Shown: positions 15,191 through 62,704 of the stretch, piece after piece | How positions within the stretch are numbered: position 1 is the stretch's first letter | Layout of the letters: every line of letters starts with the position of its first letter | NCBI GenBank assembly: GCA_977020255.1 | Contig: CDROCS010003796.1 | Span: 186,001 to 250,000 of the forward strand | DNA: 64,000 nucleotides | Reading direction: 5' to 3' | Source: Obrimoposthia wandeli | Lineage: Eukaryota | Position numbers and translations under genes: made by a program | Notes under the pieces: generated by a model | What the model was told of the DNA's origin: nothing | Databases searched by the model: none | The model's input: the letters and a program-made list of their open reading frames with translations, nothing else

Positions 15191-15205
15191 ACGTAGTACA
15201 CCAAC

Positions 15206-23132: not shown

Positions 23133-23243
23133 TAAAAATAGTTCCTTTATTACAAATTCAGTATTATTATCAATAAAAGCTTCAAAATCAATAAAATAAA
23201 CAGATATTTTTATAGCAATAATTTTATTTTATATTGTTTATAT

Positions 23244-23585: not shown

Positions 23586-23650
23586 TATATTAATTAATTA
23601 ATTAAAACTGACTTACTTCATTTATATCTTCTTTATTGTTTTCATTCTGT

Positions 23651-24634: not shown

Positions 24635-24766
24635 CAGTAATTATTCACCTATAAGGGTGTCCAGTCACCGAAAATTTCACGCTTCACCTAACAAAGGGTG
24701 CCCGGTCACCGGATTTAAGTCCTTGATTTTTTTTAATCACAGAGAAAATTCAACTCAATGATCAAT

Positions 24767-27112: not shown

Positions 27113-27742
27113 ATGACTGAAAAAATGAATATATTTAGATCCACGACGCAAACAACTCCTTCAATAACGTATGAAACGATGTTCAAAGAAATTTCTTGGC
27201 CTAGAGGAGGCACATATGTAATGCGAAACAACAAATTGTAGGACAAAAAGTATCAAAATAAAAAGAAACACTCAAAACAAATGAAATCAACAAGTACAAA
27301 CAAAAAGTATCAAAGTTTAAAGAAAAAATCAAAACAAATGAAATCAACAAATACAGACAAAAAGTATCAAAGTTCAAAGCAACAATCAAAACAAATGAAA
27401 TCAACAAATACAAACTAAAAGTATCAAAGTTCAAAGCAACAATCAAAACAAATGAAATCAACAAATACAGACAAAAAGTATCAAAGTTCAAAGCAACGAT
27501 CAAAACAAATGAAATCAACAAATACAGACAAAAAGTATCAAAGTTCAAAGCAACAATCAGAACAAATGAAATCAACAAATACAGACAAAAAGTATCAAAG
27601 TTCAAAGCAAGAACCTTCTTAGAACGCAGAACAACGTTTGGCTAAAACACTTGCAAACCTGATCAAGAATAAATGTTTTTTAGCCGCACAAGAAATCGAG
27701 AAGGAAATTATCGAGTTGAACACCACATATAAATGTATCTGA
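27113..27742 (+). pseudogene. Second (cargo) ORF of the pogo element with a 19-aa repeat
   Basis: One 210-codon frame, MTEKMNIFR...(DKKYQSSKQQSKQMKSTNT)n...AQEIEKEIIELN, with three isolated stops. Confidence 0.5.
27244..27610. repeat. 57-bp tandem repeat, ~6.5 copies
   Basis: Periodicity is directly visible. Confidence 0.95.
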
Positions 27743-27914
27743 ACATATGTAATTAATGTAAGTAAACATCTTTTCAGGATTTTAAGTTCTTGTTTGAATA
27801 TTCGACTGTACTCTTACAGGTGAGACTTTTAAATAATGCATCTATAAGTGATTCGGTGTCGGTCTCTCTCAAAAACATGTTTTAATGAATACCCTTACAA
27901 GTGAATAATTACTG

Positions 27915-28167
27915 TAGCTGATTTGATATCAAAATCATCATCCAAATCACCTCCTCCTTCCTTTGTAACTTTCAATTTAACGAGAAATAAACTATCATTC
28001 AAATCAAGATATTGAGTATTGGATCCATTTATATTGAATTCTAAATCCGGAGAAGATGTCCCGTTAACCGTATTTGTCGGAAACATTTCTTCAAAACTAG
28101 CACTATCAACCACAACCTGAGGTATAGGTTTATCAAATATACACAATTCAGTTTTAGCACAACTCAT
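27915..28167 (-). pseudogene. MCP: Major capsid protein (PY), N-terminal part
   Basis: MSCAKTELCIFDKPIPQ...LEFNING...YLDLNDS is a typical Polinton MCP N-terminus. Confidence 0.92.
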
Positions 28168-28217
28168 TACTTTAAAATTGTTCCACCTAGTTTCAAACGT
28201 TTGTTTATACCCGATGC

Positions 28218-28529
28218 TTATGATGTTTTCTTACGTTTATAACCACTTCCCTTTTGAGTTTTCTTTTTCAAAAATTCAGCTAGACTTGGTGAAATTTCAT
28301 TCACATGATCCAAGGCTGCATCCTTTAGTATGGGAAGAAATTTCTCATCACCAGACAAGTATTTTGATCCAACATTAGCAATAAAATTCCCGAGTCGCTT
28401 GAGTAGTGGGAAAGCAAAGCGACCAAAAACCTTCAGCCATCCTGATCCATACTGTTTTCCCACAAAATAAGGCAAATCACATCCTTGCATCGGTTTACTA
28501 TATGCATCGATTATACTTGAATCAATCAT
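28218..28529 (-). CDS. Small Polinton virion protein (PW-like), 103 aa
   Basis: QYGSGWLKVFGRFAFPLLK amphipathic motif and C-terminal QKGSG. Confidence 0.75.
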   Translation of the reverse strand: MIDSSIIDAYSKPMQGCDLPYFVGKQYGSGWLKVFGRFAFPLLKRLGNFIANVGSKYLSGDEKFLPILKDAALDHVNEISPSLAEFLKKKTQKGSGYKRKKTS

Positions 28530-29548
28530 AATTTACGAAAATGAACCGTTAAACTTGTTTCAGCTCCGTAAGCAAATGTAATTAATCTTCCAGAATCATT
28601 ACGTATATTAACTTCAATGTTGTTTATAGAAGAAGTACTCACTGGAATATACATTGGATTTTCAATTGGAATATGTATAACATCACCATACTTGTGTTTT
28701 TCCTGTTGAACCCAAATTGCTTTTATTAAGGGAAGTTCCCTTCCTCCTACGAATATTGGTTCAGTAATACTCGTGTAGATATAAATCTGATTATATGCAT
28801 TAGTCATTTTAGGAATAATCTTTGCTTTGAAAACCTCATGTTTATTTTCAAATTCATTTTCATCAAAACCGATAATTGAGGCTAATGATTTATCCATGAC
28901 AACTTTATCAATATTTGATTTCAATTAGAAATGAATCAATTTATCACCTAGTTTAAAGTTTTCAAATACATTTGGTAACACTGTTTTAAAATGTTTACAC
29001 ATTCTTTCACTATCGGGAAAAAGAAAATCATTGGGAACTGAATATATTTTTCTCTCGCGTTTAGTGAATCTGCTTTTTATCTTGAATGTAATTATCGGAT
29101 ACTTGAGATGATTATCCATAATTCCCGAAAACACATGCTTTCCTTTATCAGGGTTAGTTGGAAATCCATATTGTTGTGCAACAATTTCATCACTAAAAAC
29201 TATTTCAAAATTATGCCCTTTTCCTATATTTTGGATTCGATTCTCTTTATTCAAAAAGATTGTGAAATCATCGCCAGCCTTAATACGAGCCAAATCCATT
29301 TGACCCTTATCAAATAGTAAAGTCACATCAGTTACTTTATCAACTTCTTGTTGAGTAATCTATTCAATCTCAGCTTCACTTTGAATAGATAGAGGAGAGT
29401 AATTGAAAGAAAATTCCGTAAGAGCAGCTTCCCAAGCACCAGGTAAATTGATTGAGCTTTGATAATCAATACTAAAAATATTAGCAGTATTATTCGGCTG
29501 AGTTAATGGCGAACCAATGCTTGGTAATACAACATACATTGAGTTCAT
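28526..29548 (-). pseudogene. mCP: Minor capsid/penton (PX) with two in-frame stops
   Basis: MYVVLPS...NT...F...L.G.WEAAL, IYIYTSITEPIFVGG...PL and PMYIPV...IEVNIRNDSG. Confidence 0.92.
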
Positions 29549-30556
29549 TCTATTTGAGAAGCTAATATCCAACTAGGTTCAGTATATCCATGCCACTTAA
29601 CATGATATTGTTTATACTTTCCCCTACCTTTTGTCTTTAAGATTTCTTGAATTCTATATACATTTGGTTTCTCAGGCAAGACTTGTAATTCCTCATGATA
29701 AAATTTACCCATAATTACATTATTGCTCTCATCCTCAATGAAATACATTACTAGCACATGTTTATTATCAATTTTAGTTATACGAAATACTTCATCGCTC
29801 CAATTCTCTTTGAAATTCTTTATAAAATTAGTAGTACTAATTTGAGAAATACGTACATAATCACCAACTTTATACTTGGGTTTCTTTACAACTTGACTTT
29901 GGTTACGGCGTTGCCAAATTTCCATAGCATTCTCATATGTAACATCAACAGGTCTCTTTCGGTTTAATGATGAGTGTTCACTATGATTGTATGCATGTAT
30001 TATTTGAAGTAAAACAGTGACCCAGGGCTTATTTCCCTGCTTTGTGAAATACCTTTTCAATCGTCTCTCAATGTTCGATTAAAACGTTCAACTAAAGCAG
30101 CGTTATATTGGGAAAATACTGAGTAATGATTAATATTATGTTTTTCAATAGTGCACCAACATGTTTATTATAAAACTCCTTTCTATTGTCTGTTTGGAAA
30201 TTTCTTGGTTTTATTTCTTTAATCAAAAGCTTCATTGCAGCTAAAACATCGATACCAGACTTAGACTTTAATGGAATAGCTCGCGCGAATCTGCTAAAGA
30301 CATCAACACAAGTTAAAATATATCGATGTCCACCGTTAATACTCGCATACGGAATCATTTCCATCAAATATGCTTGCCATAAATCATTCGGGCCGCTCGT
30401 TGGGAACCGACATCTCATTGGTTTGTTTAAGCTGTAAGCTAATTGATTTCTCAACCACGCCTGAGTTTCCTTTTTCCCCTTCTTTGACTCTTTTGCTAAT
30501 TTTGAAACCCATGTGTAACCAACGGGTCGACTTGGGTCGAACCATATTTTCTCCAT
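29545..30556 (-). pseudogene. int: Retroviral-like integrase with C-terminal chromo-like domain; frameshifted, first catalytic Asp changed to Tyr
   Basis: WQAYL (normally WQADL), VDVFSRFA, TDNRKEF, ERFNRT, YNHSEHS and VKWHGY. Confidence 0.94.
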
Positions 30557-30653
30557 TACAACAAGACGATTTGATTTTTATATTGAATTTAGGAATAGAT
30601 GGAAGTGATCCCATATATAAATTCATATTTTTGATTCTAATTTATGTTTATAA

Positions 30654-31064
30654 TCATCGGTTTATTAGTCTACTAGCAAGTGCACCAACTATTGAGCTAA
30701 TAATTGGTACGAGAAATCCTAAAAATCCACCACTTTGCTTATAAAGCAACTTACGTTTACCGATCCGTGTTTTGGCGTGAAACAAAGCAAGTAGAGGTTT
30801 CTTATGCCGATTGATGTTAGCCTTGACCATTATTTTACCAGAAACTATTTTCTGTATCATATTAAGTAAATCATCAATTACAAAAGTAGGGAATGATTTA
30901 AGAATAGCTGGGCGGCGAATAGCAGGTGCACACATGAGAGAATTGAAATAGGCAATACTCCTAGATTTCTTAACAACAGTTCTTTTCTTATTTGATTTTT
31001 GAGCAACCATTTTTTTTATCAATTTTTTAACTTCAGGTTTAACAGTTTCCTTTTTAAAATTCAT
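30654..31064 (-). CDS. Basic virion protein with QSGG-FL motif and C-terminal amphipathic helix, 136 aa
   Basis: KQSGGFLGFLVPIISSIVG; sits between ATPase and INT as in Polintons. Confidence 0.75.
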   Translation of the reverse strand: MNFKKETVKPEVKKLIKKMVAQKSNKKRTVVKKSRSIAYFNSLMCAPAIRRPAILKSFPTFVIDDLLNMIQKIVSGKIMVKANINRHKKPLLALFHAKTRIGKRKLLYKQSGGFLGFLVPIISSIVGALASRLINR

Positions 31065-31712
31065 CTTCGAGAAACTGGTTTCTTTGTTTGTTTATAGACG
31101 ATTATTCCTGATGGATTGAATATATCAGTTCTAACTCTCAAGTCATCGGGACAATCTTGAGTAAAATCAATAAAAATGTATCCATGAGGAATAGTAGTTG
31201 CATCTTGAAATGAATCAATTAGGAACTTTCTATTATTTGGATAAACTTGTCTTGAAACAAAATGAACAACCGTATGATCACGTGGATTCTTGAAGAGAAC
31301 AAGACAATGTACATTTAAATTATGAGTTATATGGTTCCCTCACTTGATGAAATAGATTTTGTGTGATGAAAACAACAGTTACTTCACGATGTCGTGCTAT
31401 TTTAGTGAATAAATTATTGAAATCACTCTCTTTATTTGCTTCTTGATATAAATCATCAATAACAATAACATCATGTCGTTGTAATCGCTCAGACCAATTA
31501 TCATCGAATTCTTTAATGACTTTTATATTTTTGATTTTCTTAAACTCTTTACTGGTTAACCCGGCTTCTCCATCTCCTCCCTGATGCCAGTATATTTTAT
31601 TAAACTTAAAAGTAAAGTATTTATTATTTTGCAGTAATTTACATACAAAATGTGTTTTCCCACTACCACTAGAACCTACAATCTGAAAAACTGAATTATT
31701 TTTTAAGTTCAT
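31061..31712 (-). pseudogene. FtsK/A32-like packaging ATPase, one frameshift near 31335
   Basis: Walker A GSSGSGKT, Walker B VIDD, RH...ITQNLF, LFKNPRD and IFIDF. Confidence 0.93.
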
Positions 31713-31754
31713 ATTAAAATATTAGATTATCGGGATAATGTTTATAAGACAAAA

Positions 31755-32042
31755 CTATTTAAAATATTTTATTAAAATAAATCCACTAAGAAACAATAAA
31801 AAACTCTTATCCCAGAAAAAGCTCCTTTTCTCTTCTTTCTTTGCACGTTCTTCTTTCTTCTGATTGTATCCCAGAATGAGAAGATTGACGGCCTTGTCGT
31901 GCACCATTCTTCTTACGTGTTCCTCCAGGGGTAGATTTGAAACATCAATGAGTTTCATGACATCTTCTTCTATGACATTCTTCGAGATGAAGCTCTTCAC
32001 CGCCTTGTCAACATCTTGCTTGAAATGATTTGGAGTAGACAT
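31755..32042 (-). CDS. 95-aa orphan with a basic stretch and C-terminal hydrophobic anchor
   Basis: Intact ORF ending FFWDKSFLLFLSGFILIKYFK, with TATA and CCAAT upstream. Confidence 0.65.
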   Translation of the reverse strand: MSTPNHFKQDVDKAVKSFISKNVIEEDVMKLIDVSNLPLEEHVRRMVHDKAVNLLILGYNQKKEERAKKEEKRSFFWDKSFLLFLSGFILIKYFK

Positions 32043-32207
32043 AATGAAGAAGCAGTAAAAAGTAATCTGATTTTATACTATACATCTGAAATCTGATTGG
32101 TTAATAAAAAACACTGACTAATAAAGACACTAACTAATAAAGACACTGACTAATAAATACACTGATTAATAAATACACTGATTAATAAAGATAAAGACGA
32201 ATAAAAT

Positions 32208-32960
32208 TTACACATGATAACGATTAAAAATACGTATTTGATGAAGCCTAGCTTCATTAGGAGCAGCAATAGTCCGTTTAGTTTTAACAAGATTGGAAGC
32301 AGCTGTAACACCCATCGAATGAGATAAAAATGCAATAACAATGCAAGCAGCATGTAAACTACCATAATGACTACATACTAAAATCTTACCACCATTTTCG
32401 ATATTTTCTTTAATTATATTATTAGTCTGTTTATAATATATCATTATTGTTTCTTCTAACATTGAGTTTACAAAGACAGAAGTATATTTTAATTTCTTAT
32501 AAGATATCTTATCCAGTATAGATGTATTGATTACATGAGTGAAATTGGAGTTCAAAAGTGTAGTTTCATCAAACCCATCTCTATAATTACCAATATATAA
32601 TTGATTTACTAAAATCTCACTCATTTTTGTTTTGTTTAACTTTTCTACATTAAGTTGAGTAAATCTAGCACTAAACAAACTATCAAAAAGATGGGTCATG
32701 TGGTTCATTTCCATACTGGAAGCATGAGCTATTATGGGTTCCATAAAAGCCAAAGCATTTAAAAAATCTAATCGTCTCTTATCTTCTTCTTCAATAATTG
32801 GATCTATAATAACTTCTTCTATCATCACTTCATCAATAGTTTCTTCTCTTCTCATAACTGTTGTTGTTGCTGGTGATGATGTTGCTGATGGTGTTGCTGG
32901 CGATGATGTTGTTGGCGATAATGTTGCTGCTACTGCCAGTGCTGATGTGATTTTTTCCAT
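32208..32960 (-). CDS. Dual-specificity phosphatase fold, predicted pseudophosphatase, 250 aa
   Basis: MSEILVNQLYIGN, FTHVIN, GGKILV, CIVIAFL and VKTKR...PN. The HCxxGxxR signature reads CSHYGSLH. Confidence 0.85.
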   Translation of the reverse strand: MEKITSALAVAATLSPTTSSPATPSATSSPATTTVMRREETIDEVMIEEVIIDPIIEEEDKRRLDFLNALAFMEPIIAHASSMEMNHMTHLFDSLFSARFTQLNVEKLNKTKMSEILVNQLYIGNYRDGFDETTLLNSNFTHVINTSILDKISYKKLKYTSVFVNSMLEETIMIYYKQTNNIIKENIENGGKILVCSHYGSLHAACIVIAFLSHSMGVTAASNLVKTKRTIAAPNEARLHQIRIFNRYHV

Positions 32961-33293
32961 TTTATTAATTCAGAGTCAATTTACTCTTATATACTAAACG
33001 AGGTTTGATTTCATTGAAGCATCAGTTTCATCATAGCCGCGTGATTTGATTGGAGTATTATTCAACCTTTCCAATGTACTTCCAATGTACTTGTAAATGT
33101 AGTTGATGACGTAACCTAAAGAGTTAAATAAACTACAAATAAATATTACTCATGATTATTTTTCCTAATTAAAACATTTAGAATAACTGAGCCATGGTCT
33201 TTAAATGCATCCTGAAACTCTTTACATTCAATAATTTCATCCATTTTATGATAAAGCAAATCAAATATTGTTTATAACCCAGAAACATCTATT

Positions 33294-33968
33294 TTAGACC
33301 ACATTACAACTATTTGCAGCTATTTGCAAGTAATGACATGTGATGTCTTTGTCTCTAAGATAAATATATTTTAGTAACATTACGACTATTTGGTTCAGGA
33401 AATAAATAACACAAGTGTGAAGATCTATATTAAATAAAATACATTCAATCAGATACTCATAGTTTAAAGATTTAACATTAAGTATCATAATCTTCCCGCT
33501 AGCAAACATGTTCACGCATAGTGGATTGTATTTGACATATCCCAGGAAGATTTCTGGCTCGTAAACAGCTTCCGATCCCATACTTTTGCTCATCTTGTTC
33601 AGGTTTATTGATGTTTCTAGATTGCTGCTGAGACTGATTGATTGGATTCTTTCCATTTTTATATCAAAAGGAAGACTGCTTTCATCCAGCACCGTTTTAC
33701 AACCCATTATTCTGCATGTACCTAATTTATAATTATATATAAATGTAAAAATAAATTACCAGATTTGAAAATGATAATAGTGTAACCTTCACACTTGAGT
33801 CGATACTGATGAGGCTTCGAAGTCCGAAATGGTAAATGTTGAATGTTACTTACAACCATGCCATTGTAATTAATATTCACTAATTTGATATTGTGAAGTA
33901 GTATTTCTGATTATTATAAACTGATTTCTTCTATTTATACTATTTGAACATCTATTTTTAGATTGCAT
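33294..33968 (-). CDS. TBP (TATA-binding protein)-like gene with a 38-nt intron; 5' end uncertain or frameshifted
   Basis: Two TBP-like repeats: TIIIFKSG|TCRIMGCK and SNLETSINL...YEPEIF...VNMFASGKIMI. Confidence 0.8.
33722..33759 (-). other. 38-nt GT-AG intron in the TBP-like gene
   Basis: TCT G|GTAATT...AATTAG|GT ACA; 38 is not a multiple of 3, and splicing restores IFKSGTCRIMG. Confidence 0.85.
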
Positions 33969-33976
33969 GTCTTTGT

Positions 33977-34961
33977 TTAATTGCCTATGCTATGAAATTT
34001 AATATTTCTTACTCGTCTAATGATAATTGTCTTGCAATATGGACATGAAATAAAACGTTCTGAACATTTAATACACGTGTTTAAGTGTCCACATGGTAAA
34101 AATGCCACGGAAATCGCATCGCTCATGCAAACAACACATTTGGGATTTGGCAAGAGGTACTTGAGATAATTTATACGATGTTTAGGTCAGATTTTATTTC
34201 TAAAAATCTTAAATCCGTTATAAACTCATATATAGAATCATATTTGTTACCGAATGTTTTAAATATATTAACTAAAACGGCTTTGATTCTATCATGACTA
34301 TAATCACGTTTCAGCAAAACTATTTAACGAGTTTCCATCTGAGCATCAATTTCATCATTACTAATATGATATTCTACAATACATCAGTTCTTGATTCCCA
34401 TACTAGATGCTTTACAATCTCGAGTATGTAAGATTCTTTCAGGCATAGTATCAATAAACTCAAGTCGGGGTACTGCTTTCTGACAGAAACAACATCGATA
34501 AGAATCATTCCAAATATATACATGTGGAAAAATCGATAATGTAGGTATTTCAATATCATTAGAATAATTATTGCATACAATAACTACTTTATCCATTGGA
34601 GTTGAATCAAAATCAATTTGCTTGGTGCTGGAATCAATTATTGGTACGTTTGAAACATTCATTTCAAAACAAACGGGCATCTTGGGAAAAATAGCTGATG
34701 CCGCTTCATTGGTTTCAGATAGTACTCCCATTCCGATATTGCTCCCAGACAGTAAATACACTTTACATTATCTTTCTAATCATCGTGCTTGTAAAATCCT
34801 GCTTTTGCTAAAGCTGTCTTATCCGCTAAACCAGTAAACTTTGCTTGTAATGTATCTAATCTATGTCGCTCATATATCATATCTTCCTTTCTTCTTGAAA
34901 TCTTGTCTAAAACGTCGTCATCTAATGATGAGTTCTCCATTTTCTGAAACATAATATGCAA
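33977..34961 (-). pseudogene. iap: Inhibitor of apoptosis: BIR-BIR-UBA-RING
   Basis: BIR: LAKAGFY...DNVKCIYC...WE...H...PRCPFV. Second BIR-like: CCFC...H...C. UBA-like: RIKAVL...GNKYDSIYEFITDL. RING: CVVC...LPCGH..C..C...CPYC. Four stops and two frameshifts. Confidence 0.9.
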
Positions 34962-35409
34962 TAAATTTAGTAGTCATAACAACATTGAATAATGAAATTT
35001 TCTAGCTTATATAGTAAGTGAAAACTATTTTTAGACTACATTCTTGGATTTTACAAGAATAGTCATGTGATGTCTTTGTCTTAAGAATAAAGCAGTATAA
35101 ACAATATTTTGATAATGATTTTATTGAAAATGAATAATCAAAATAATGAAAATAATCAAAGTAGAGCTAGTACATATATAGGTTCTGGTAGTCATTTATA
35201 TTCTAATATGAATTATAATAGAAATAATCAGAGAGAAAATATTAATCCATCAAGTTAAACAATAACAAGTCCTACGCGTATAACCGAAGAACATAAGCCC
35301 TTTAAGGATATGACTAATACTAAACGATTTTCATAAACAAGAATGTTAACCAATTAGAATTGAGCTTTAGAGGATAAACAATTGAATATTTCAATTTATA
35401 ATTGTCAAT

Positions 35410-36234: not shown

Positions 36235-36829
36235 TTACATAAAGTTGCAATATAGATGCAGTTGTTGGGGTTTCTATACGAGACTTGTATAGATCCTCTT
36301 GTGTGCGGAGGGCCCTAACGTGAGTTCTAATAGAAGCAGGTCTTAAAGTTGGTCGTGGCCTACTTAGTGCTATGGTTGCCTGTCTCAATACTTATCTGAA
36401 GGTGTTTGTTTTTGATGTTTCTTAATCTGAAGGGTTTAAAACAATGCTTTCTAATGTAGGAAATCGTTTATTGTTAACACACTAGATTAAACACAACAAT
36501 ACGTTTACGTACGTATTCTCTAAAAAGTTACAGTAAAAATTCCTAAGACTTCTGTAAGTCTCTACACAAGTGGGGATGAACCACGTATCGATTTTATGTT
36601 AAGGTTGGTTAAGTTCTTAGAGTCTTTCTTCTAAATCGTGGATAAGCTCAAGTTATAGATTTTATGGAGCTGGTTGCTCTAAAAGTATGGGTTGATTTTA
36701 GATAGGGTAACCCCTCTAAAATGTGAATATACTTTCTTGTCGAATTATCGGCGTAATCCAACTTCACAGCTAATCAAACTTATAATATACTTTAATGCAG
36801 CTTTTAGTGATTCAGTAATTCAAAAACTT

Positions 36830-38275
36830 TTAATGTTTACTGATTCGAAAACTTTCAATGTTCAATTACTCAAAAACTTTTACTGTTTACTAATTCAACA
36901 ACTTTCAATGTTCAATTACAAACTTTCAATGTTCAATAACTCAAAAACTTTTACTGTTTACTAATTCAAAAACTTTCAATGTTCAATAACTCAAAAACTT
37001 TTACTGTTTACTAATTCAAAAACTTTCAATGTTCAATAACTCAAAAACTTTTACTGTTTACTAATTCAACAACTTTCAATGTTCAATTACTCAAAAACTT
37101 TTACTGTTTACTAATTCGAAAACTTTCAATGTTCAATTACTCAAAAACTTTTACTGTTTACTAATTCAACAACTTTCAATGTTCAATTACAAACTTTCAA
37201 TGTTCAATAACTCAAAAACTTTTACTGTTTACTAATTCAAAAACTTTCAATGTTCAATAACTCAAAAACTTTTACTGTTTACTAATTCAACAACTTTCAA
37301 TGTTCAATTACTCAAAAACTTTTACAGTTTACTAATTCAAAAACTTTCAATGTTCAATTACTCAAAAACTTTTACTGTTTACTAATTCAAAAAACTTTCA
37401 ATGTTCAATAACTCAAAAACTTTTACTGTTTACGAATTCAACACCTTTCAATGTTCAATTAGTCAAAAACTTTTACAGTTTACTAATTCAAAAACTTTCA
37501 ATGTTCAATTACTCAAAAACTTTTACTGTTTACTAATTCAACAACTTTCAATGTTCAATTACTCAAAACTTTTACTGTTAACTAATTCAAAAACTTTCAA
37601 TGTTCAATTACTCAAAAACTTTTACTGTTTACTAATTCAAAAAACTTTCAATGTTCAATAACTCAAAAACTTTTACTGTTTACGAATTCAACAACTTTCA
37701 ATGTTCAATTACTCAAAAACTTTTACAGTTTACTAATTCAAAAACTTTCAATGTTCAATTACTCAAAAACTTTTACTGTTTACTAATTCAAAAAACTTTC
37801 AATGTTCAATAACTCAAAAACTTTTACTGTTTACTAATTCAACAACTTTCAATGTTCAATTACTCAAAAACCTTTACTGTTTACTAATTCAAAAACTTTC
37901 AATGTTCAATTACTCAAAAACTTGTATTGTTTACTAATTCAACAACTTTCAATGTTCAATTACTCAAAACTTTTACTGTTAACTAATTCAAAAACTTTCA
38001 ATGTTCAATTACTCAAAAACTTGTATTGTTTACTAATTCAACAATTTTCAATGTTCAATTACTTAAAAACTTTTACTGTTTACTAATTCAAAACTTTCAA
38101 TGTTCAATAACTCAAAAACTTTTACTGTTTACTAATTCAACAACTTTCAATGTTCAATTACTCAAAAACTTTTACTGTTTACTAATTCAAAAACTTTCAA
38201 TGTTCAATTACTCAAAAGCTTTTACTGTTTACTAATTCAACAACTTTCAATGTTCAATAACTCAAAAACTTTTAC
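36830..38275. repeat. ~50-bp AT-rich tandem array, ~28 copies
   Basis: Unit ACTCAAAAACTTTTACTGTTTACTAATTCAAAAACTTTCAATGTTCAATT. Confidence 0.96.
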
Positions 38276-38315
38276 CTAACTTCGTCACGTCTCACCTATT
38301 TAATTTGATGGGATT

Positions 38316-38543
38316 TTCTGTGAGCGATCACGGGTAGTCAGTAGAATAGCTGAATCCTGTTCTGTGAGCGATCACGGGTAGTCAGTAGAATAGCTGAATC
38401 CTGTTCTGTGAGCGATCACGGGTAGTCAGTAGAATAGCTGAATCCTGTTCTGTGAGCGATCACGGTTAGTCAGTAGAATAGCTGAATCCTGTTCTGTGAG
38501 CGATCACGGGTAGTCAGTAGAATAGCTGAATCCTGTTCTGTGA
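38316..38543. repeat. 44-bp near-perfect tandem repeat, 5 copies
   Basis: TTCTGTGAGCGATCACGGGTAGTCAGTAGAATAGCTGAATCCTG at a period of 44. Confidence 0.96.
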
Positions 38544-40404: not shown

Positions 40405-41244
40405 TTATACGGATGGGCTTTAAGTCAACCTTTACCCCATATGTAATTTAAATGGATGCATGATAATTTTGATTATATTTTGAATTTAGTTGGAAGTGAA
40501 AAGGATTAAAGTAAAACCGTATGGGGTTTTCTTGATGAAGTAGATTTACATCGAATCGTATACATAATAAAGTTGATGACTTTCCTATTGGGCCACATAA
40601 GATGTGTCCACCAAACTCAAAAACTCCTAAATTACTTTTAACACATAATTATAAAGAGCATTATGTAATACATTTCCGTTTACTACAATTCTATATTTAT
40701 CTTGGTGCTGAAATCTTAGAAATTCTTAGGGCTATTCGGTTTATTCAAGCACATGTTTTAAAACAATATGTAGATTTTAATTCAAACAAGCGGGAAACTA
40801 GTGTCAATAAGTTTGAATATGAGTTTTACAAATTAAAAAATAACTCCGTTTACGGTAAAACGGTTGAGAATCTTAAGATGCGATTTGATATCAGATTATG
40901 TAATAACGATAAACGGTTTTAAAAATTAGTTTCGAGTCCTTGGTTTAAATGTTGATTTAAATGTAGTTTTTATGCAGAAACAGGAAATATGTTTAGATCA
41001 GCCTTCATATATCGGTCAAGCTAAACTTGATCTATCTAAATTACGAATGTATCAATTACAATATATTGAGCTTGAACGGATTAGGCAAACTTTTAATTGC
41101 AGTATTCGAATTGTAGCTATGGACACAGATTCTTTTTTCCTTGAATGTGTGAATATTAATAAGAATAAATTACTCAAAGAAATGATTAAGAGTGGGTATT
41201 TAGATATGAGTAATTACCTAAAACACATCCCTTTGTTCCTTTGA
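40405..41244 (+). pseudogene. polB: Diverged pPolB fragment from a different Polinton family
   Basis: LYGWALSQ, FYKLKNNSVYGKTVENL, LDLSKLRMY and MDTDSFF. Confidence 0.9.
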
Positions 41245-41299
41245 ATTAGGACCGACACTTTATAATATTTGAATCTGCTAGGCGTGTAGAAGAACCATC

Positions 41300-49935: not shown

Positions 49936-51478
49936 AAATTGTGATTCAAGTTTTCACAATAAAATATTTTATATGTTCTCGGTCATAAAATATAAATATT
50001 TAAAAATTAATTTATCATATGTTTAAAATTTTATTTAAGGAATGGTAACGTTAAATTTCATTTAACATTTTAAATATATTAAGATAAAAATAGTTAAACT
50101 AATTTCTTTGTATAATTTTAAAATTTAATTTAAATTGAAAAAAAATACAAATAAATTTAATTTTATTATACTTTTTAAAAATATAATTATAGATATTCTT
50201 CTTCAATTTAAAAATAAAACAACGAGTTTTGAATCTAAATTATGATGAATCTATGATAAACATTTTCATATAGGTTTTTTTTAATAAATATGTTTCATAT
50301 AGGAAATTACAAATACAATTGAATATCATTCCTGGGTCATTTTTCTAAAAAATGCGACTATATATATTAATATTTTTTACTACGAGTGAATTACTTACAA
50401 ATGTTTATTCATTAAGTAAGCTAACTCGACTTCGTTTACATCTAAAAATTGCCTGATGACTGATATAGCTTTATTTTTAAAACTGAAAATTATTTTGGCG
50501 TTTAGATAATTAATGTCAAATCTGCGAAAAAAAGTTTAAAAGGTGATTATTTGCTTCTGATAGAAAAATTCGTAATTTTCAATTGTCAAGTGAAGGCTAA
50601 ATTATTCTCTAAACAAAAACAAGACTACTGCCAAATACCATGCATAGAAAGCAGTTTATGTCATTAAAACGTTTAGTCAGAAAAATGTTAGTTTTTTTAT
50701 AATTTATTATTTTATTTTCAACATAATTTTAATAATCATATACAAATTTATTTGCTTGAATATGACAATTTTGGCTTTCATTTGGTAATATGGATAATTT
50801 CGGTATAACTTTCAATATGTTTCCATGGTTATATTTATGATTAATTAAGAAGTTTTATACATATTTCTGAAAGTTAAGGATATGTTTAAAAGTTATTTAT
50901 TGACTCAGTTTATTAAACTCTCTAATAAATTTCAACTATTTACAAATAGAACAAAAATATCACTTGCTCATTAAATTTTAAAAAATATGCAAATAATCAC
51001 TGATAGTCTTAAACAAGTTTCAATAACATGTGAAGTTATATAAAAAGATTTTTATGAACAAAACCTATTCGTGATATTTAAAGAAAATAATCAATAATCT
51101 CCGTAAAGCTATTTTCATCCTCCGTTAGTTATCCGTGCTTGATATTGATCTGCTTTCATGGATTCTGTCCTATTCTCACAAATTATCTCGTTAAACCCTA
51201 AAACGCTCTTTTTCTTCTTAAACCTCTGAACCCAACGTTATTTCTTTCTTCCTAAGCCTCTTAACCTCCACGTTATTTTCCTCTTTTAAAACCGCCTAAA
51301 TATTTCTAACCATTTAAATAGTGAATTGACTTATAATAATTTCGTTCAAAATCATTAGTATCCCTTTTTGCTGAATTATCTTCTTTGCATTGGGTTAGTA
51401 CAAACCGAATTGTTCTACATATGAAATCTATTTTATTCTACATTTGAAGCAATATGGAATGCTTCTTTGGATAATGAG

Positions 51479-54400
51479 AGTAAGTAGATGTGGAACTTCT
51501 GGAACAAAGCCCCCTGCTGAGGACAAAATGTCTATGTTTTACTTTAAAGGTGACTCATCGATGATTCATCGAACAAAGACCATGACTCATCGATGACTCA
51601 TATCCTTTGTTCTCCTAAAGTACACATGACTCATCACGTGACCTCATGAAGTCACATGAGGTCATGTTTAGGTCAAATTTCTCCTGAGTACACCTGATTT
51701 TTCAAGGTCTAGGTCACATGAGATCAAGGTTAAATTTATCTCGTGTATACCTGATTTTCAAGGTCATGACTCATGTCCTTTGTTTTATTATACTCATCAT
51801 TTGAGTCCATGTGCTCACCATGAGCTCAAGGTTATTATAAGTTCATGAGCTCATATGCTTACTATGAGCTCAAGATTATCATGATATCAAGCTCATGTTC
51901 TTTTATTTTCTACTCATCTTATGAGCTCATGTGCCCACTATCAGCCCAAGGTTATTATTATTATTATAAGATTTTGAGCCCATGTGCTTACCATGAGCCC
52001 AAGGTCCTAAGGTCAAGGTTTAGGTTATGAGCTCATGTGCCCACCATGAGCCCAAGGTTATCATGATATCAAGCTCATGTTCTTTTATAGTGTACTCATC
52101 ACTTGAGCTCAAGGTTATCGTCTAGGTCATGAGCCCATGTGCCGACTATAAGCTCATGTCTTTGTCTTGAAAGACATAGTCATATCAGCTAAAAGGTATA
52201 AAACCCATAGGATGTTTACTTCAATAATGTTTGAAAAACACAGTAGGACAACAATCAATAGATATTTGTTCTTCTATTGTGTTTTTCAAACATATATTGA
52301 AATTAAATCAATAAAAATAAAAATTACTCAAGCTTGTCACAGCAGCAGAATAATAAATAAATAAAAACTTACCTGAATACTGCAGCATAAATCCATTAAC
52401 CGCACACATACTCCAATACAAGGCAGATATTTTCTCTGCCTTGTTTTGGAGTGTGCGGTAGGGAAGAGAAATTCACACACTCACACAGAAGTGAAGAAAA
52501 TGTCACGTGACTGTGTGAGTGTGTGATATACAAATAATTGCACTTGTTTGCAATATAAGTACACGTGATATGCTTTGTTCTTTTTGAATTATTTACTTTC
52601 ACATGTTGAGAACATGAGTCTTTCAGGACAACAACTATGAGAACATGGTTACTCAATCTTGATGGTACTTCTTTGAGCTGGTTATTTGAGCTGCTTCTTT
52701 TAAGGAAGTTATTTGAGTTGCTTCTTTTAAGGAAGTTCTTTGAGTTGCTTCTTTAAAGGTACTTCTTATTGCTGGTTTGTAAAGTTGGTTCTTTGAGCTG
52801 ATTCATATTATGGTTTTTCGAATAGGGTTCTCTCAAAGGGTCTAAAACCTTCAAAAATGTATTTTTTCTACTTTTCAAAGTTATATATAATAAGCTTGTA
52901 CATCATTTTAACCAAAAACCTTTTTGCACATGTAAATTTTTGCCTCTGAAATTTTTTCATCAAAACTTTATTTTCTTCAAAAACTTATTTTCTTCAAAAA
53001 CTTATTTTCTTCAAAACTTTATTACTTCAAAATCAATTACTTTTAAAACAAAGTAATAAAAAATTTACAAAGTTTATTTAACTAAATTAAGCTATCTACT
53101 GATAAGTATTATTTAAATTTATTTAAACGTTCTAGCACGTGTTGGAACTATTCATCATAAAGACATTATAAAGACACTTTGTTTAAATACATCAATTTCA
53201 TTCTTAGATTTCTAAAGTCATTTAATATAAATTAGGGGAATGTATCTAGGTTATTATATATCATGTGTTTAATTCGAAATGTTATTATCCATTGTTAATT
53301 AAAATTTGTTTTACTGCGTCAATGATGATGATGTAAATTCCATCTAATATGTTTTTCACTAGCTTACATCACTCAGGCATATGTGTGTGTGAATAATTAG
53401 ACAGATGTTGCCTTTTGGTTACATCACTCAGACACGTGTGTGTAAATAATTAGATAGATGTTGTTAGTTGATTAGTTTACTCCGCCATGTAAATTATCAT
53501 ACAGATGTTGACACTTGGAAACATCTTATTAAAATTTAAACTACTTTAAATAGTTTACTTATATCATATGAGTAACTAAAATAAATCAAGTTCTATAAGT
53601 ATTTACACATGACTTACTTTGATTTTATAAAATAACTTTAAGAATTAAATGTATATATGTATGTTTGTGAGCATATTTGATTACTAGTAGATTAACAAAG
53701 ACATCAGATGATATCCCTTGCACATATATAATAAAGCTTAATCATGAATGTATGTGTGTGTATGTTTGTATGCAAAGCTTAATCATCTATGTATGTGTAA
53801 GTTTGTATGTGTTTAATAAAGCTTATGTATATTACCAGATATCTAATTACATGTGTAAAACTGATCATGTATAGTGAATTTACTACATCATATCAAAATT
53901 TGTTTTAATGCATCAATTTCAATGCCCGCAAATTAAAATATTTGTTTGTTATGATCACAAGTATTTGTGATTTTGCTGCATCATAACAAGATATATTTAC
54001 TAAAATGTAGATATCACCTCATCTTATCTCATCATAACTTCATCTTCTCTCCTCATCTCAACATACTATGTTTTCTTAAGAAACTATGAAATCTCAGATG
54101 TTAAACGGAAATTAAGAATAGATCAATATTCTACATGTTATTGATTACAGTTATTAAAGCTCAATTAAAGCATTGATATTTATAATGTAGAATTGAAACT
54201 TAGAATATATATATATATCATAAGACTACTAAGGTTATTCATAATAATTTATCAACATAACTTGTATTCATCAATTGTATTATGGTTACAAAGTGTTATG
54301 TATTACTATCATTAGAAAATTATAGCTAAAGTAGATACTAAAATATCAACGTAGTATTTATAGCAACGTATAGAAAATATAGTAAACATACCTAGAATGA

Positions 54401-56744
54401 TGGAGTATAGTAATCCACTGGAATGTCTTCTGATTGGCGAAATATTGGTTGAGCAGGAAAATATAACACATATAGCAAACTTAGCTGAGAGAAATTGGAG
54501 TATAGTAATCCACTGGAATATCTTCTGATTGCTGGAAGATAGGTTGAGCAGGGAATAGACTATAGTAATATTGTGTGTGTGTGTGTGTACATGCATGAAT
54601 ACTTAGAAAAAATTATAATTTGATTGAGCAAGGAAATATAATATAGTAATATTGTATGTGTGTGTATATGTATGTGTGTGAATACTTACAAAAATATATA
54701 AAAAATAATGTATAGTAATATTGTATGTGTGTATGTGTGAATACTTACAAAAATTTACAAGTTGATAGAACAAGGAAAATAGAACATAGAGACTATTGTG
54801 TGTGTGTGCATGTGTGTCTGAATACTTACAAGAAATACAAGGTATATACAAAAATCTAATTATAGAACATTACATCTCTATCTTTTTCAATTCCATATCA
54901 ATATTGTTTATCGTAATAACAACTATATGTTCTATATTATGTTCTAAAAGTATTAATGTATTCAGGAAATTTATGATATTTAGGTTCTTCTAGGGAAGAA
55001 ATTATGTGAGATTTAGAAATATTTATTAGCTTTGCTTGGAATTTTTCAGTTGATTGAAGAAATTTAGGGAACAGCTCACATTGATGGAGTGTGTATTTGA
55101 TTCAGTTTAGTAGGCTTATTGAAACTTTTGCTCATATGATGATATCAGAGAATGTTCACCAATCAATAACTTCAAGCAAAATGTGATTAATATGGTGGAG
55201 AAAGTCTGAAACTCTTTATCTTACTTTATTGGATTCAGATGTGCTTACAACAAGACTACTACCAATGATTGAACTTATCAATATCTTCTCCAGGTAAGAT
55301 ATTATCATAGGATTGCGCGCGCCTTCATATCCTTACACCAGGATCTACTATAGAATTGTTCCCAAGGTGATGATTGAAAAATTCGCGGGTGAAGGATATT
55401 TATCGATCAATTTTATTATTAACTCTGAGGGTGAATATATTTTGATAATCATAATTTTCATTGGTTAGAGATTCACCCAGATCAATTAGATGGAAGTAAA
55501 TGAAAGTATCCTGAATGAATTACATGACATACTTAACAATCTTAGAAAATAATATTGGAAGACTTTATTATACAAAGAAGACTGCTTTTATCATTTTGTT
55601 TACAAGAAGTCATAGAAATTAGTGATATTTGGGAATTTTCTAGAAGAAACATTAATGATATATCTAGCAAATTTGCAATATTTAGGTGATTCTAGAAGAG
55701 AAATTAATGATATGTTCAGGGAAAGTTATGATATTTAGGTTGTTTTAGCGGTAGAATTAATGAAATATCTCGGAAATTATTGATATTTAGATGGTTCAAG
55801 AAGAAACACTAATGATGTGTTCAGGAAATTCGTGATATTTAGCAGATTCTAGAAGAGAAATGTATGACATATCCGGGAAATCAATGATATTTAACTGGTT
55901 ACTCGATAAAAGAAATTAAAGATATCTTCAGCAAATCTATGATGTGTAAATGGTTCTATAAGATAAATAATTGATATGTTCACCCAATTTTTATACCTAT
56001 TAGCTGATATGACTATGTCTTTCAAGACAAAGGCATAAGCTCATAGTCGGCACATGGGCTCATGACCTAGACCATAACCTTGAGCTCATGGTGAGCACAT
56101 GAGCTCAAGTAATGAGTACAATATAAAAGAATGTGAGCTTGATATCATGATAACCTTGGGCTCATGGTGGGAACATGAGCTCATAACCTAGACCTTGACC
56201 TTATGATAATCTTGGGCTCATGATAAGCACATGAGCTCATAAAATGAGTACACTATAAAAGAACATGAGCTTGATATCATGATAACCTTGAGCTCATAGT
56301 AAGCATATGAGCTCATGAACTTATAATAACCTTGAGCTCATGGTGAGCACATGAGCTCAAGTGATGAGTATAATAAAACAAAGGACATGAGTCATGACCT
56401 TGAAATGACCTAGAAAATCAGGTATACTCGAGAGAAATTTTACCTACATCACATGACCTTGACCTCATGTGACCTTGACCTTGAAAATTCATGTGTACTC
56501 GGGATAAATTTGACCTTAACATGACCTCAAATGACCTTGACCTCATGTGACCTCATGAGGTCACGTGATGAGTCATGTGTACTTTAGGAGAACAAAAGAT
56601 ATGAGTCATCGATGATTCATGGTATTTGTTCGATGAGTCATGTTTTTGTTAGATGAGTCATAGATGAGTCACCTAAAATGTAGAACAAAGACATTTTGTC
56701 CTCAGGAGGAGGGCTGTGTCCCAGAAGTGCCACATCCACCTACT
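51479..56744. mobile_element. Non-autonomous Polinton, 5266 bp, ~730-bp TIRs, 6-bp TSD AATGAG
   Basis: AATGAG|AGTAAGTAGATGTGG...CCACATCCACCTACT|AATGAG; TIRs 51479-~52205 and ~55990-56744. Confidence 0.95.
55200..55450 (+). pseudogene. polB: Highly decayed polB relic with intron remnant 55294-55310
   Basis: TCTCCAG|GTAAG...CATAG|GATTG...TTCATATCCTTA corresponds to FSIPG|LTFASAFKSL. Confidence 0.6.
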
Positions 56745-56949
56745 AATGAGTGTAAAGTAACTTCTTATAGGACATTATTTTCAAAGTATATCAAATTGGG
56801 GGAATATATCATTAATTTCTCTTCTATAACATCTTGCAAACAAAATGATCAAAGCAGACTTCTTTGGATAATGAATTAAAAGAAAACTAGAAGTCTTCCA
56901 ATCTTCTTTTCTAAGAGAAGCTCGTCAAGTTTATCATGTAATTTATTTG

Positions 56950-57480
56950 GAATACTTATATTTATTTCCATTAAATGAGTATAACAGCTTAAATTGTTAT
57001 AGCTCACGAATTATTTCTTCTATTTGGTCAATTACCCGGTAAAATATTTACCGGTGAAAATTGATAAAAAGATTATTATCATAGAAATAGAATTATCCTC
57101 AGAGTTAGTAATTTTGACAAACAAATATCATTCCTCCGCGAATATCTTCTTCAAGCAGCATCTCGGAATCAATTCCACAATAGATCTAGCTTTTGGTCTT
57201 TTAGCTTAGTAAGGACTTGAAAGCAGGCACAAACCTATGTAAAATAATACTAGTATCTTATCTGGAATAGAGAAGAAATTGAGAGATTCCGTTATCGGTA
57301 ATAGTCTTGTTGTAAACACACCCGCGTCCATATTAAGGTAAAGCAACAGTCCCAAAGAAATTCACTCTCGTCCTTTCTCTGTCATATTGATCGCTTTTGA
57401 TCTTCTCAACACCTTTTGGTGGAAGTTATTGATCGGAAAACAGTTTCTGATACAGCCATATGAAAATATCCATTTCACAA
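56950..57480 (-). pseudogene. polB: Decayed polB relic with intron remnant 57235-57261
   Basis: YLNMD...LNFFSIP, AFKSLL and EDIRGGMIFV align with the main pPolB. Confidence 0.75.
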
Positions 57481-59468
57481 GATGAGGTTGAAGAATGTGT
57501 CAGACTAGATTTTCAACAAGACTGCTAAAACTTAAGTGAATCGAATACAGATTCCATCACTGTGCACTGTTCCCTAAATTTCCCCAATCAACTGAAAAAT
57601 CTCAAGCAATGCTCACAAATATCACTAAATCTCACATAATTTCTCCTCTAAAACATCTGAATAGCACAAATTAGCTATGCTTAAATTTCCTGAACATATC
57701 ATTTATTTCTCTTCTAGGACCACCTCAATATCATAACCTTTGCTCATATATTGATGTAAGCCTATTAATAAATCACGTTGGGGTCGGATTAGGCATTTTC
57801 CTATAATTCACAATAATTTCTAACTCATCAATTTCTATAAATTCTGAGACTCCTTATTTAGCAAACATTAAATATAACTTATTGACTTTAGTAAGTAAAA
57901 AAATTATATAGCAATTATTAAATAATGACAAAATATTTATAGATATTAACTGATACTTCAAAAGTCTTAGATCAATTTCAGAGATATATTATAAATCATT
58001 TATCAAATATGAGGAAATCTTATCTGATATTTCAAAAATTAACCTAACAGCTAGACCGCTAATACTTTAACCGAAAAATATTCTGATTATCTTTTCCTAA
58101 ATTACTGTGACTTAATAGGAGAAGTATGTCAAAGCAAGTAGCAGCTAAATTATTGAATCGAACTTGTATAATTATGTATTCCATCTTTATGATAGAAACA
58201 TTGATATATATGTGCAGAATATCACAAATATTATATAACAAAAATCACTAAATAACAAATAACTTCTCGAAAACATCTTAATAGTACAAATTAGGTAATC
58301 ATCTATGCATAAATTGCTCTTCTTAAACCTTAAATTATCTTCTTAATCACCTAAATATCACAATTTCCTGAACACCTTGTCAATTTCTTTACCTATATAT
58401 CCTAAATAATTTTCTGAAATTACTTTTTAACTACCTAAATATCATAAATTTCTCTAGTAGGAGCACCTGAACATCATTAATTTCTCTTCTAGAAGCATCT
58501 AAGTAATATCTCCTTTGAACCATCAATTTGTCTTCTATGTCATTTTCCCTTCTAAACTCTTTCTAAATAGTTAATATCTAAGCTATAATTTCAGTTCTAA
58601 ACCCTTTTAATTTCCTCTTCTGAAACCTCTTGAACACCAACGTTAAATCCTCATATAAACCCTATTTTAAGACTATAAATTATCTACTAAAACTCATGAA
58701 CTCCTTCGTTAAAACCCTTTCTATACCTCTTCTTAGGCTATATTTTCTCTTCTTAAACCAAAACCCCCGTTAAATCCTCCTACTTTAAATCCCTTTTAGT
58801 ATTTTTTTTTCTTTTTAAACCTACTAAATATCACGTTAAATCCACCTCTAAACCCATTTTAAGACAATATTTTCTCTTCTGAAACCTCTTAATTCACCTG
58901 TAAACCCCTCTTAGGTTTTAATTTCCTGTTCTGAAACCAAACCACACGTTATATCCTCCTCTAGACCACTTTTAAGCTATATTTTTCTTCTGAAATCTCT
59001 TAAAACCCCCTTAAATTCTCGTCTAAAATACTCTAAACACTTCGTAAATTTCTTCTAAGACCACTTATGCTTAAAATTCTCTTTTAGAATCACCTACATT
59101 TCATAAATTACCTGAACATCTCGTTAATTAGTTTTCCAAACAACCTAATACCATAATTATCATATAGATCGCATTAATTCCTCTTTATACATATCTGTTG
59201 GATTAAATAATTTATTTAATGGATTAATTAATTAAAAATTAATGAATTTTTGGTCAATTAAAATTGACATTAACTGAAGTGCCCACAGTCAGGGAGGTTT
59301 TCCTTGTCAGCCCCCGACGGGGTGGACGTCTCGTTTCGTCTTGCCAGGGTCGTCAGGAAGGCGGCGAAAAAAGTAGATGGAAAAAGAGATTTTTATCTCA
59401 AGTATTTTTACCACTGAAAATTACCGCCCAGTAGCAGCGGCCTTCTTCTCAGTCTTCCTACATCGTCA

Positions 59469-60348: not shown

Positions 60349-61024
60349 CACTTTGATGGGCGTCGAGGCGTTCCTAGCCCAGTGTGAAAAATCCAATTCC
60401 AGTGTCCTCGGCCAGCACAACATTAGCAGTTTCCTGTCTGCCCAATCTCGGCCAGTGAGTCGTCGTACAGAACAGGAGGCAAAAACTCCCGGCTGCACGT
60501 GTGTGTATGTGCAGAGCCGGGGATTTATCACTTCGATTCTCCCAGCCGGTGGAGAGCAACGACTGTCCCTGCCAATACCAGTTTATCGAGATTCCCTGTC
60601 CCAATGCTGTTTCACCCTGTGTCTTCTCTACCAACCCTACCCACTCTGCTGCTGAAAGGATCTCTTCTCACAGACCAATATGTCTCTTATCTCCCCTGTC
60701 GCAGCACAGTGTATCCCTCTCTCTACCACTGCAACAGTCTCCCTCTACGTATTCGTGACAATTCTGCAAACTTTTCCCTGGTGCTGTTTAGTAATAAATT
60801 TACATCGGCGATTATTCCTGTGTGCAGCAGCGATTTCTCCCTGCTAGTCAATGTGCCTATATCCTATCTCTCATGTGTGTGTCCTACCCGTGACACTATC
60901 CAATTTCTTTGAATAAGCATGTGTTTCTTTTTTAGTGTACATGTACTAATATGCACATATTTTTGACTATAAAAGCACAAACAATTAATACAGAAAGGTA
61001 TGGATTTTGATCTTAATACAATTT

Positions 61025-61470
61025 GATGCCAAGAAATTAACAATTTGAAAAGATTTTGTTATTATCAAACGAATTTTTATGTCATACGATTATTAATAAT
61101 TTCCAAGAAATTAACAATTTGAAAAGATTTTGCTATTATCAAACTAATTTTTATGCCATACGATTATTAACAATTTCCAAGAAATTAACAATTCGAAAAG
61201 ATTTTGCTATTATCAAACTAATTTTTATGCCATACGATTATTAACAATTTCCAAGAAATTAACAATTCGAAAAGATTTTGCTATTATCAAACTAATTTTT
61301 ATGCCATACGATTATTAATAATTTCCAAGAAATTAACAATTCGAAAAGATTTTGCTATTATCAAACTAATTTTTATGCCATACGATTATTAACAATTTCC
61401 AAGAAATAAACAATTTGAAAAGATTTTGCTATTATCAAACTAATTTTTAGGCCATACGATTATTAACATA
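61025..61470. repeat. 74-bp tandem repeat, ~6 copies
   Basis: CCAAGAAATTAACAAT at 61029, 61103, 61177 and onward. Confidence 0.95.
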
Positions 61471-62704
61471 TCCTTATTTTAAAACAGCTAGTATGACAAA
61501 CTTCATACATACTTATTAATTTTTTCTAAAAATTTCTTATTAATCTTTAAAATTTCCTCTAAACCATCTGAATATCACTAAATATCATATCTCGGAGAAT
61601 TCTCTTCTAGAAACATATCGTTCATTTCACCCTGAACATGCATGGATAAATTTCATTTTAAAAATTCTCATTGGATATATATACCAAATTTCCATTGAAT
61701 TCTATATTAAAATTAGATTGTCTATGAAAATAAGATTGTCCAAGAAGGGAAGAATAATATGGGGATTAAGAAGAGGAACCAAGACACACGTTATATCCTC
61801 CTCTAAACCACTTTTAGCGTATATTTCCCTCTGTAAAATCTCTTAAAAACCCCACCAAATCTTCTAAAAGTTATATTTATTCTAAACACTTCGTAAATTT
61901 ATTTTAAGATGTTCTTATGCTTAAAATTATCTTTTAGAATCACTTAAATATCATAAATTACTTGAGTATCTAGTTAATTTGTTTTCCAAACCACCAAATA
62001 TCATAAATCTCATATACATCGCATTAATTCCTTCTCTATACATATTCTTATTTTAAATCAGTTAATATGATAAACTTCATACATATTTCTTAATTTCCTC
62101 TAAAACATTTTTAATAATCGTTAATATTTTCTCTAAACCATCTTAATATCATAAAATATCACATCTCGGGGAATTCTCTTCGATAAACATTTCGTTAATT
62201 TCTCCCCTCTGATCATATATGAATCAATTTTATTTATAAATTCTTATTGGATACAAACCTAATTTCAATCAAATTCTATATTAAAATAAGATTGACTTAG
62301 AAGCTCTGATGATTTAGGACAGCTGATTGATTATGGTTAAGTTTCTATATTATTGATAAATTCAATGAAAAATATCCACTTAATCAAAAATATGTAAGTT
62401 TGAATATGTTAAAATATTTAATAAATCAATTTAAAATACTTATAAATAAAATAATAGATAATTTCTAATATCATGGTTAATAATTAAATAAATATTTCCA
62501 ATTATATTATTCATATCAGAAATATTACTACTTGTATGATAATTAAATAAATTATAGTAATTTAAAAATAAAATTAAAGTAGCTAATAAAAATAACTAAT
62601 TTAATTATATAATTAATTTTCATTTAAAAATAATGAATAATTACTTTTGTTTGAATTAATTAATTTTTAAAATAAAACAAAAAATAAAAATTGATTAATA
62701 CAAT

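Follow-up and report, generated by a model that had tools for sequence, protein, structure and literature searches.

A degraded Polinton in this stretch of Obrimoposthia wandeli DNA carries a GT..AG insert in the middle of its protein-primed family B DNA polymerase (pPolB) gene, and the question is whether this insert is an intron that the element inherited or damage suffered after integration. The earlier note had argued for inheritance, pointing to short insertions at the same codon in two diverged pPolB relics nearby. The window, i.e., the whole stretch analyzed, comprises 64,000 nt (contig positions 186001-250000), and the genome searched amounts to 1.35 Gb. In the main copy, which belongs to a family that we call M, pPolB lies on the minus strand from approximately 22501 to 18338. 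The features of this copy and two further pPolB fragments are as follows.

20020-22501, minus strand: exon 1 of the family M pPolB, with the N-terminal region and the 3'-5' exonuclease domain (PF03175 positions 5-160, E 8e-9)
19783-20019, minus strand: family M pPolB intron, 237 nt, phase 1, GT..AG (GTTTGT...TTTCCAG)
18338-19782, minus strand: exon 2 of the family M pPolB, with the polymerase domain (PF03175 positions 199-386)
22701-34998, minus strand: rest of the family M element, with the genes upstream of pPolB
5586-6918, plus strand: M-type exon-2 fragment, which begins downstream of the junction and is thus uninformative for the intron
40405-41253, plus strand: family C pPolB fragment, from which the site is missing; in family C relatives the codon is uninterrupted

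Exon 1 of the main copy ends in ...LEPLNFFSIP plus one base, with its first 75 codons in another frame, and the 237-nt insert stands behind the first base of the Gly codon in ..LNFFSIP-G. A 17-nt tandem array adds to the length of this insert. Exon 2 contains a stop and frameshifts in the window and forms one open frame in three of ten fetched sister copies. The upstream region holds an unknown 170-aa ORF and genes for an adenain-like protease, a putative major capsid protein, a putative penton, an rve integrase, a pX-like protein, an A32 ATPase, a phosphatase, a TBP-like protein and a BIR-RING protein. The capsid and penton names are presumed only from position, size and N-terminal motifs. 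In the main copy, the putative capsid gene is interrupted by a 603-aa Tc5/pogo-type DDE transposase ORF (24770-26578). The cargo of family M, at 32211-34998, consists of a dual-specificity phosphatase, the TBP-like gene and the BIR-RING (IAP-like) gene, and TBP-like matches were found in the intron-free families A and B as well. Tandem arrays with units of 10, 18, 25, 44 and 74 nt occupy 17-1731, 13403-15300, 36817-38543 and 60955-61542 of the window.

The elements that carry the insert have the hallmarks of Polintons. PF03175 scores above its cut-off on both exons, the integrase matches PF00665 (E 3e-9; a 349-aa ORF in sister copies) and the packaging ATPase matches Pox_A32 above the cut-off; the adenain-type protease reaches E 0.005 with Peptidase_C5, which is under the cut-off, and ATPase and protease were together counted as present. 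Terminal inverted repeats with AG..CT ends and a 6-bp target duplication occur in sister copies. Perfect 6-bp duplications enclose 4/10 M, 2/4 F and 1/4 E fetched stretches, as well as the element at 51479-56744. Since intron-bearing elements have matching target duplications, they must have carried the intron when they moved. The capsid and penton candidates are ORFs of 410 and 348 aa at the expected place, with counterparts 36 to 58% identical in families A and B; they had no match in Pfam, PHROG or PDB sequences, and single-sequence modeling gave a pLDDT of 29.6. The ATPase, integrase, penton-like and capsid-like genes are each a single ORF in at least three of ten M copies, and the pPolB intron is the only one seen in the core genes in a survey of long ORFs. 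Most individual copies are broken.

An insert at this Pro-Gly codon was found in seven pPolB lineages of the genome (M, E, F, G, H, I and K). Both exons could be located at 87 of 91 sites in fetched loci, and all 87 distinct junctions contain it. These inserts measure 41 to 609 nt, fall into all three classes modulo 3 and are 75 to 90% AT; 80 begin with GT and 87 end with AG, although AG and the opening codons of exon 2 belonged to the patterns used to search for lineages E to K, which inflates the apparent constancy, and 20 of the junction loci were hand-picked for sequence variants. Four of the seven junctions without GT begin with ATTTGT and three are shifted by nearby indels. Family M, which is young and abundant (150 matches scored, 97 to 100% identity), offers a set that was not selected on AG: among 30 loci picked by exon 1 alone, a GT..AG insert of 89 to 531 nt is present in all 29 with exon 2 found, the 30th being without a detected exon 2. 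Exact acceptor patterns occur at 946 and 2,356 places in the genome. The intron-free form of family M was found at no place by exact patterns, which miss mutated intron-free copies. The corresponding patterns for the clade gave three exact matches: one is an F copy with the intron, and the other two have intron-like DNA in front and no exon 1 nearby. A GT donor and a YAG acceptor at a fixed codon position, a length independent of frame and the collinearity with intron-free homologues that removal restores are all as expected of a U2-type intron.

Several further observations concern the same elements. A 12.8-kb element at G000:C51:124501-144500, bounded by a matching target duplication, carries two oppositely oriented pPolB genes, both with an insert at the Pro-Gly codon; the second insert is about 130 nt long, begins with GA and belongs to an unclassified lineage. 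On contigs C38, C67 and C66, an F-type polymerase is combined with the backbone of M: the capsid-like ORF, integrase and ATPase are 96 to 99% identical to those of M, while the polymerase is about 70% identical, apart from its first 78 aa in C38 and C67 (95 to 96%). The pattern points to an exchange of modules whose breakpoint lies within pPolB. In every intron-bearing lineage a low-complexity protein insert of variable length follows the acceptor, after ..AFKSLL; in intron-free homologues this stretch is absent or limited to a few residues.

Comparison between lineages indicates that the gene remained under selection with the insert in place. Lineages M, E, F and G share 71 to 80% amino acid identity, with pS of 0.75 to 0.92 and pN of 0.12 to 0.20 on both exons, and M, H and I share 89 to 94%, with pS of 0.32 to 0.59 and pN of 0.03 to 0.07. 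Low pN at high pS on both exons implies that both halves were kept functional long after the insertion. It is scarcely credible, on these values, that the insert inactivated an ancestral polymerase and that the family spread by borrowing the enzyme of intron-free families. Intron-free families are indeed numerous in this genome, where non-autonomous Polintons spread as well and the majority of single copies are defective, but the low pN between lineages holds for both exons, and non-coding relics have lost about a quarter of their bases, mostly through frameshifting deletions, whereas M-I kept long frames.

Without splicing, the frame runs into a stop within 31 codons at 85 of the 87 junctions, and in most E copies it does so after a single codon. 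The gene could in principle be split, its exonuclease and polymerase parts being translated separately and the insert lying between them as a spacer that supplies a start codon. At 48/48 M and 6/8 F junctions the insert does hold an in-frame ATG from which the frame is open into exon 2, and the site at the end of the exonuclease domain would suit such a division. This account is nevertheless highly improbable, for that ATG is found in none of the 31 E, G, H, I and K junctions; exon 2 has its first Met at codon 31 to 72, and in E, which has stops in the insert, this is codon 36, behind conserved residues. In M, the ATGs derive from the unit of a short tandem repeat. Moreover, GT and YAG ends would have no need to persist. 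A group I or group II self-splicing intron and an intein were likewise considered and rejected: the 237-nt insert has no Rfam match at E<=1, and the inserts, down to 41-50 nt in length, are AT-rich, unalignable and contain stops.

The shortest inserts are not out of proportion for this host. One of its CCT genes contains a 42-nt intron-like insert (GTAAGAT..TTTCAG), which brings the 42-50 nt of family E within reach; the other host introns seen are about 78 to 280 nt long, with GT..AG ends. Besides the ordinary intron-bearing CCT genes, about 20 unbroken chaperonin-like (Cpn60/TCP1) ORFs of about 550 aa occur on different contigs, an expansion of such genes. In contigs of four sequencing runs from one sample, the exact intron skip was absent among the 15 of 104 joints listed, which is not evidence on splicing. 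Taken from the genomic sequence, our favored reading, with a probability of about 0.87, is that one Polinton clade carries an inherited and likely functional spliceosomal intron in its polymerase, gained once and likely spliced by the host.

The two relics from which the earlier note had reasoned lie toward the right-hand end of the window, one inside an element that is itself inserted into the other.

56836-57502, minus strand: '57k' relic, a non-coding, deletion-riddled derivative of the family-E pPolB
57235-57261, minus strand: 57k intron remnant, 27 nt, from the family-E intron, 18 nt below its 45-nt form and beginning with AT
51330-51478, minus strand: continuation of the 57k relic past the inserted element
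51479-56744, no strand: non-autonomous Polinton, 5,266 bp, with AGTA.. termini, inverted repeats of about 725 bp and a perfect 6-bp duplication, AATGAG
54968-55628, plus strand: '55k' relic within the 5,266-bp element, a further-deleted member of the 57k relic lineage
55294-55310, plus strand: 55k intron remnant, 17 nt, from the family-E intron

The descent of the relics from pPolB, on which the earlier note relied, is borne out: tblastn matches the 57k relic, and an alignment of 857 columns with pPolB of family E shows 68% identity (E 8e-87). So are the positions of the remnants. The AT-rich 57k insert begins with AT, ends with CATAG and stands behind the first base of the Gly codon in ...LNFFSIP-G, and the 55k insert (GTAAG..CATAG) lies at the homologous place, with 5 nt missing just before the Pro codon; both share the phase-1 position of the 237-nt insert in the main copy. 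The remnants do differ in sequence and length from the main intron, as claimed, but they resemble one another (GTAAGAT...CATAG). The proposed AFKSLL reading in the 57k relic can be reached only across a frameshifting deletion, and the relics are not open frames. Nor are they two separately diverged witnesses to the intron. Most deletions are common to both, and the two fall into one clade, so they count as a single witness.

The source of the relics was revealed by the acceptor-side pattern as the coding family E, whose intron measures 42 to 50 nt and whose junction reads CCAG|GT...AG|GT. Against other families, the 57k relic gave one 87-column match to M, and those loci of F, A, B and C that were tried gave none. 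The two relics align with each other in several blocks at 66 to 82% identity, and relative to E they have 15 and 18 deletions per ~565 nt, 12/15 and 16/18 of which are not multiples of 3. An 18-nt deletion falls inside the intron of the relic lineage, and the short remnants are explained by such deletions within the ~45-nt intron of E. In a 20-row nucleotide tree built on the exon-1 flank, all six relic rows group together (SH-aLRT 96) as sister to E (98), and the 55k relic nests inside the 57k family. Each relic family has at least 40 relatives in the genome, and exact patterns gave 76 matches; counts of 1,833 and 1,261 are first-look candidates, not copy numbers. Because a 21-30-nt insert occupies the site in 30/30 loci of the 57k family and the 17-nt form is found in 19/20 loci of the 55k family (the remaining locus lacking its first bases), the remnants are not chance insertions. 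Their splice sites have not been held, however. The two ends, GT and AG, survive together at 16 of 30 loci, against a mean column constancy of 0.91, and the surrounding gene is not coding. The remnants are fossils, probably neither spliced nor needed any more. The relics trace back to a non-autonomous branch of family E in which numerous small deletions, including one or two in the intron, abolished coding. The deletions are mostly 4 to 18 nt long, with a weak excess of microhomology (mean 1.4 versus 0.78 nt, p 0.03), a pattern resembling successive microdeletions in a non-autonomous lineage that went on replicating.

Intron-free relatives place the gain on a tree. At least three pPolB families in the same genome (A, B and C) have the same Pro-Gly codons and no insert, and intron-free forms are common there (2,371 exact matches, besides family C). 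All 120 database homologues run through the site, and the flanks abut as P-G in 110 of them. In an exon-2 tree of 73 rows (11 intron-bearing from M, E and F, 8 intron-free from this genome and 54 database proteins), the intron-bearing rows stand on one long branch with SH-aLRT 100, distant outgroups lying outside. An exon-1 tree of 40 rows likewise unites 12 intron-bearing rows from six lineages on one branch (SH-aLRT 100). Both were quick searches with midpoint roots, using rows picked for long open frames, with K left out as too broken. No intron-free member turned up nested in the clade, and the intron-free genome families and the 120 database homologues fall outside the intron-bearing branch. 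In both trees the intron-bearing copies form one clade among intron-free relatives, and one change accounts for the distribution of the intron.

The intron sequences contribute less. Only 4 of 21 lineage pairs beat shuffles at p<0.05, uncorrected, and most interiors do not align, so a single origin rests on position and tree rather than on intron sequence; with synonymous sites saturated, unalignable introns are expected. These interiors, the range of lengths and the proto-splice context of the E junction would also suit several independent gains at a favorable proto-splice site (CCNG|G). We regard this as quite improbable: the intron is present in every clade member examined, A, B and C have the same codons without an intron, and the trees need no second event. 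In addition, E and F share intron 5' ends (0/200 shuffles reach the score), and a GTTTGT donor is common to M, G, H and I. Origin of the insert by tandem duplication was considered too, given that in M a donor side resembling P-G-L-Y-F stands beside the acceptor side P-G-L-T-F and that AGGTT stands at either end of the insert in E, but neither of these features is common to all lineages and both fit the ordinary splice consensus.

The intron was thus most likely gained once and, to judge from the exons, spliced ever since. With six lineages placed in one clade and exons under purifying selection, the central claim of the earlier note stands, namely that the intron predates the split of the copies and is inherited rather than post-insertion damage. 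Its description as a feature of the element needs narrowing: it characterizes one whole pPolB clade, and at least three other families in the same genome are without it. In the sequence of events that we propose, a GT-AG insert would have been gained once, at a single codon, in the ancestor of the clade. Transcription of the element would be nuclear, with host RNA polymerase II as the enzyme, and the host spliceosome would remove the intron from each transcript and so unite the exonuclease and polymerase exons. Polinton replication goes from DNA to DNA, without a cDNA stage. The element would thus have no cDNA stage of its own in which to remove the intron, which may explain the absence of intron loss, and the intron would have drifted in length as the clade split into at least seven lineages.

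Outside this genome, no clade member was found, the best database matches standing at no more than 51% (exon 1), 59% (exon 2) and 58%; protein searches favor unbroken genes, so that intron-bearing relatives could be hidden from them. Among 113 further database proteins, 51 span the site and 62 start downstream of it at scattered places, two of them right behind it. Viral contigs yielded four pattern matches, none in a polymerase frame, and no related locus, and metagenome contigs yielded one locus, intron-free at the Pro-Gly site. This locus, in Ga0163179_10075111, is an unrelated pPolB (33% identity) with an 88-nt GT..AG insert (locus 2062-2149) immediately ahead of the IRGG motif and, from 2280, a likely second donor behind NNLY-G. 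Intron gain in pPolB is not confined to the Pro-Gly codon.

The place of the intron in the protein was read from a model of an intron-free homologue, P0028 (pLDDT 95.6), which has the fold of phi29 polymerase (Foldseek E 1e-19; Z 20.9 over 528 aligned residues, rmsd 3.2). The likeness to phi29-type polymerases is one of fold; identity is only 13 to 16%, and the model represents a relative and not the protein of the window. The intron site corresponds to P330-G331, behind helix 289-318 and ahead of the IRGG motif, in a region whose motifs we take to be Exo III and YxGG. An HSV-1 polymerase chain (exonuclease state) aligns to residues 1-340 of the model only, and this limit, together with the site at P330-G331, places the intron at the end of the modeled exonuclease domain.

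Such a position invites the idea of a host-controlled switch on Polinton replication, acting through tissue-specific or small-RNA-guided splicing. By analogy, the P-element intron is subject to regulated, tissue-specific splicing. We consider a switch unlikely here. If it did exist, intron retention would give an N-terminal product with the putative terminal-protein region and the exonuclease but no polymerase, and splicing would give the full enzyme. Splicing could then set where the element copies itself, and it might have aided the radiation into seven lineages and thousands of copies.

Introns in replication or transposition genes have precedents. Transcripts of the adenovirus E2B polymerase are spliced, a short leader being joined to the polymerase body, and DNA transposase genes such as that of the P element carry introns. 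The elements described here would resemble both as nuclear DNA-to-DNA elements with a key enzyme that needs host splicing. They differ from adenovirus E2B in that the splice would fall in the middle of the enzyme.

Closer comparison is offered by animal Polintons or Mavericks of the adintovirus-like type. According to the text available of PMC8097293, the genes of intact vertebrate Mavericks have no introns, and intronless ORFs are used to define intact elements; in that of 10.1101/2022.07.12.499685, the core genes of nematode Polintons are intronless and introns occur in cargo. As far as the same texts go, these elements are like ours in their inverted termini, 6-bp duplication, pPolB, rve integrase, A32-type ATPase, adenain-like protease and length of 14 to 16.5 kb; ours differ in a core polymerase with a clade-wide intron under purifying selection, the other core genes being single ORFs. 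The accessible part of PMC12166617 describes introners in dinoflagellate eupolintoviral elements, where about 90% of the cases tested are compatible with insertion after integration and the inserts keep away from coding regions. These too are spliceosomal-type inserts inside Polinton-like elements; unlike them, as described there, the present intron is a single one that became fixed in a core gene before synonymous sites were saturated and has been copied thousands of times. The portions available of PMC10748475, PMC11296320, PMC12220804, PMC8502044, PMC5718144 and PMC10675990 contain no spliceosomal intron in a Polinton polymerase. No report of an inherited spliceosomal intron in an animal Polinton polymerase was found in the published literature searched, the scope of which did not extend to supplements, Repbase and subscription papers, which may hold one.

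Although the two relics themselves add little, the clade to which they led provides a well-resolved intron gain, placed on a tree, in a replication gene that belongs to the core of a virus-like element. Controls come from sister families of this genome that lack the intron, and there is evidence of continued function long after the gain. The intron would mean that the element is transcribed in the nucleus and relies on the host spliceosome. Screening for intronless ORFs would score this whole active clade as broken. Finally, the seven lineages and the dead offshoot form a natural series for the drift of intron length, from 41 to 609 nt, with and without selection.
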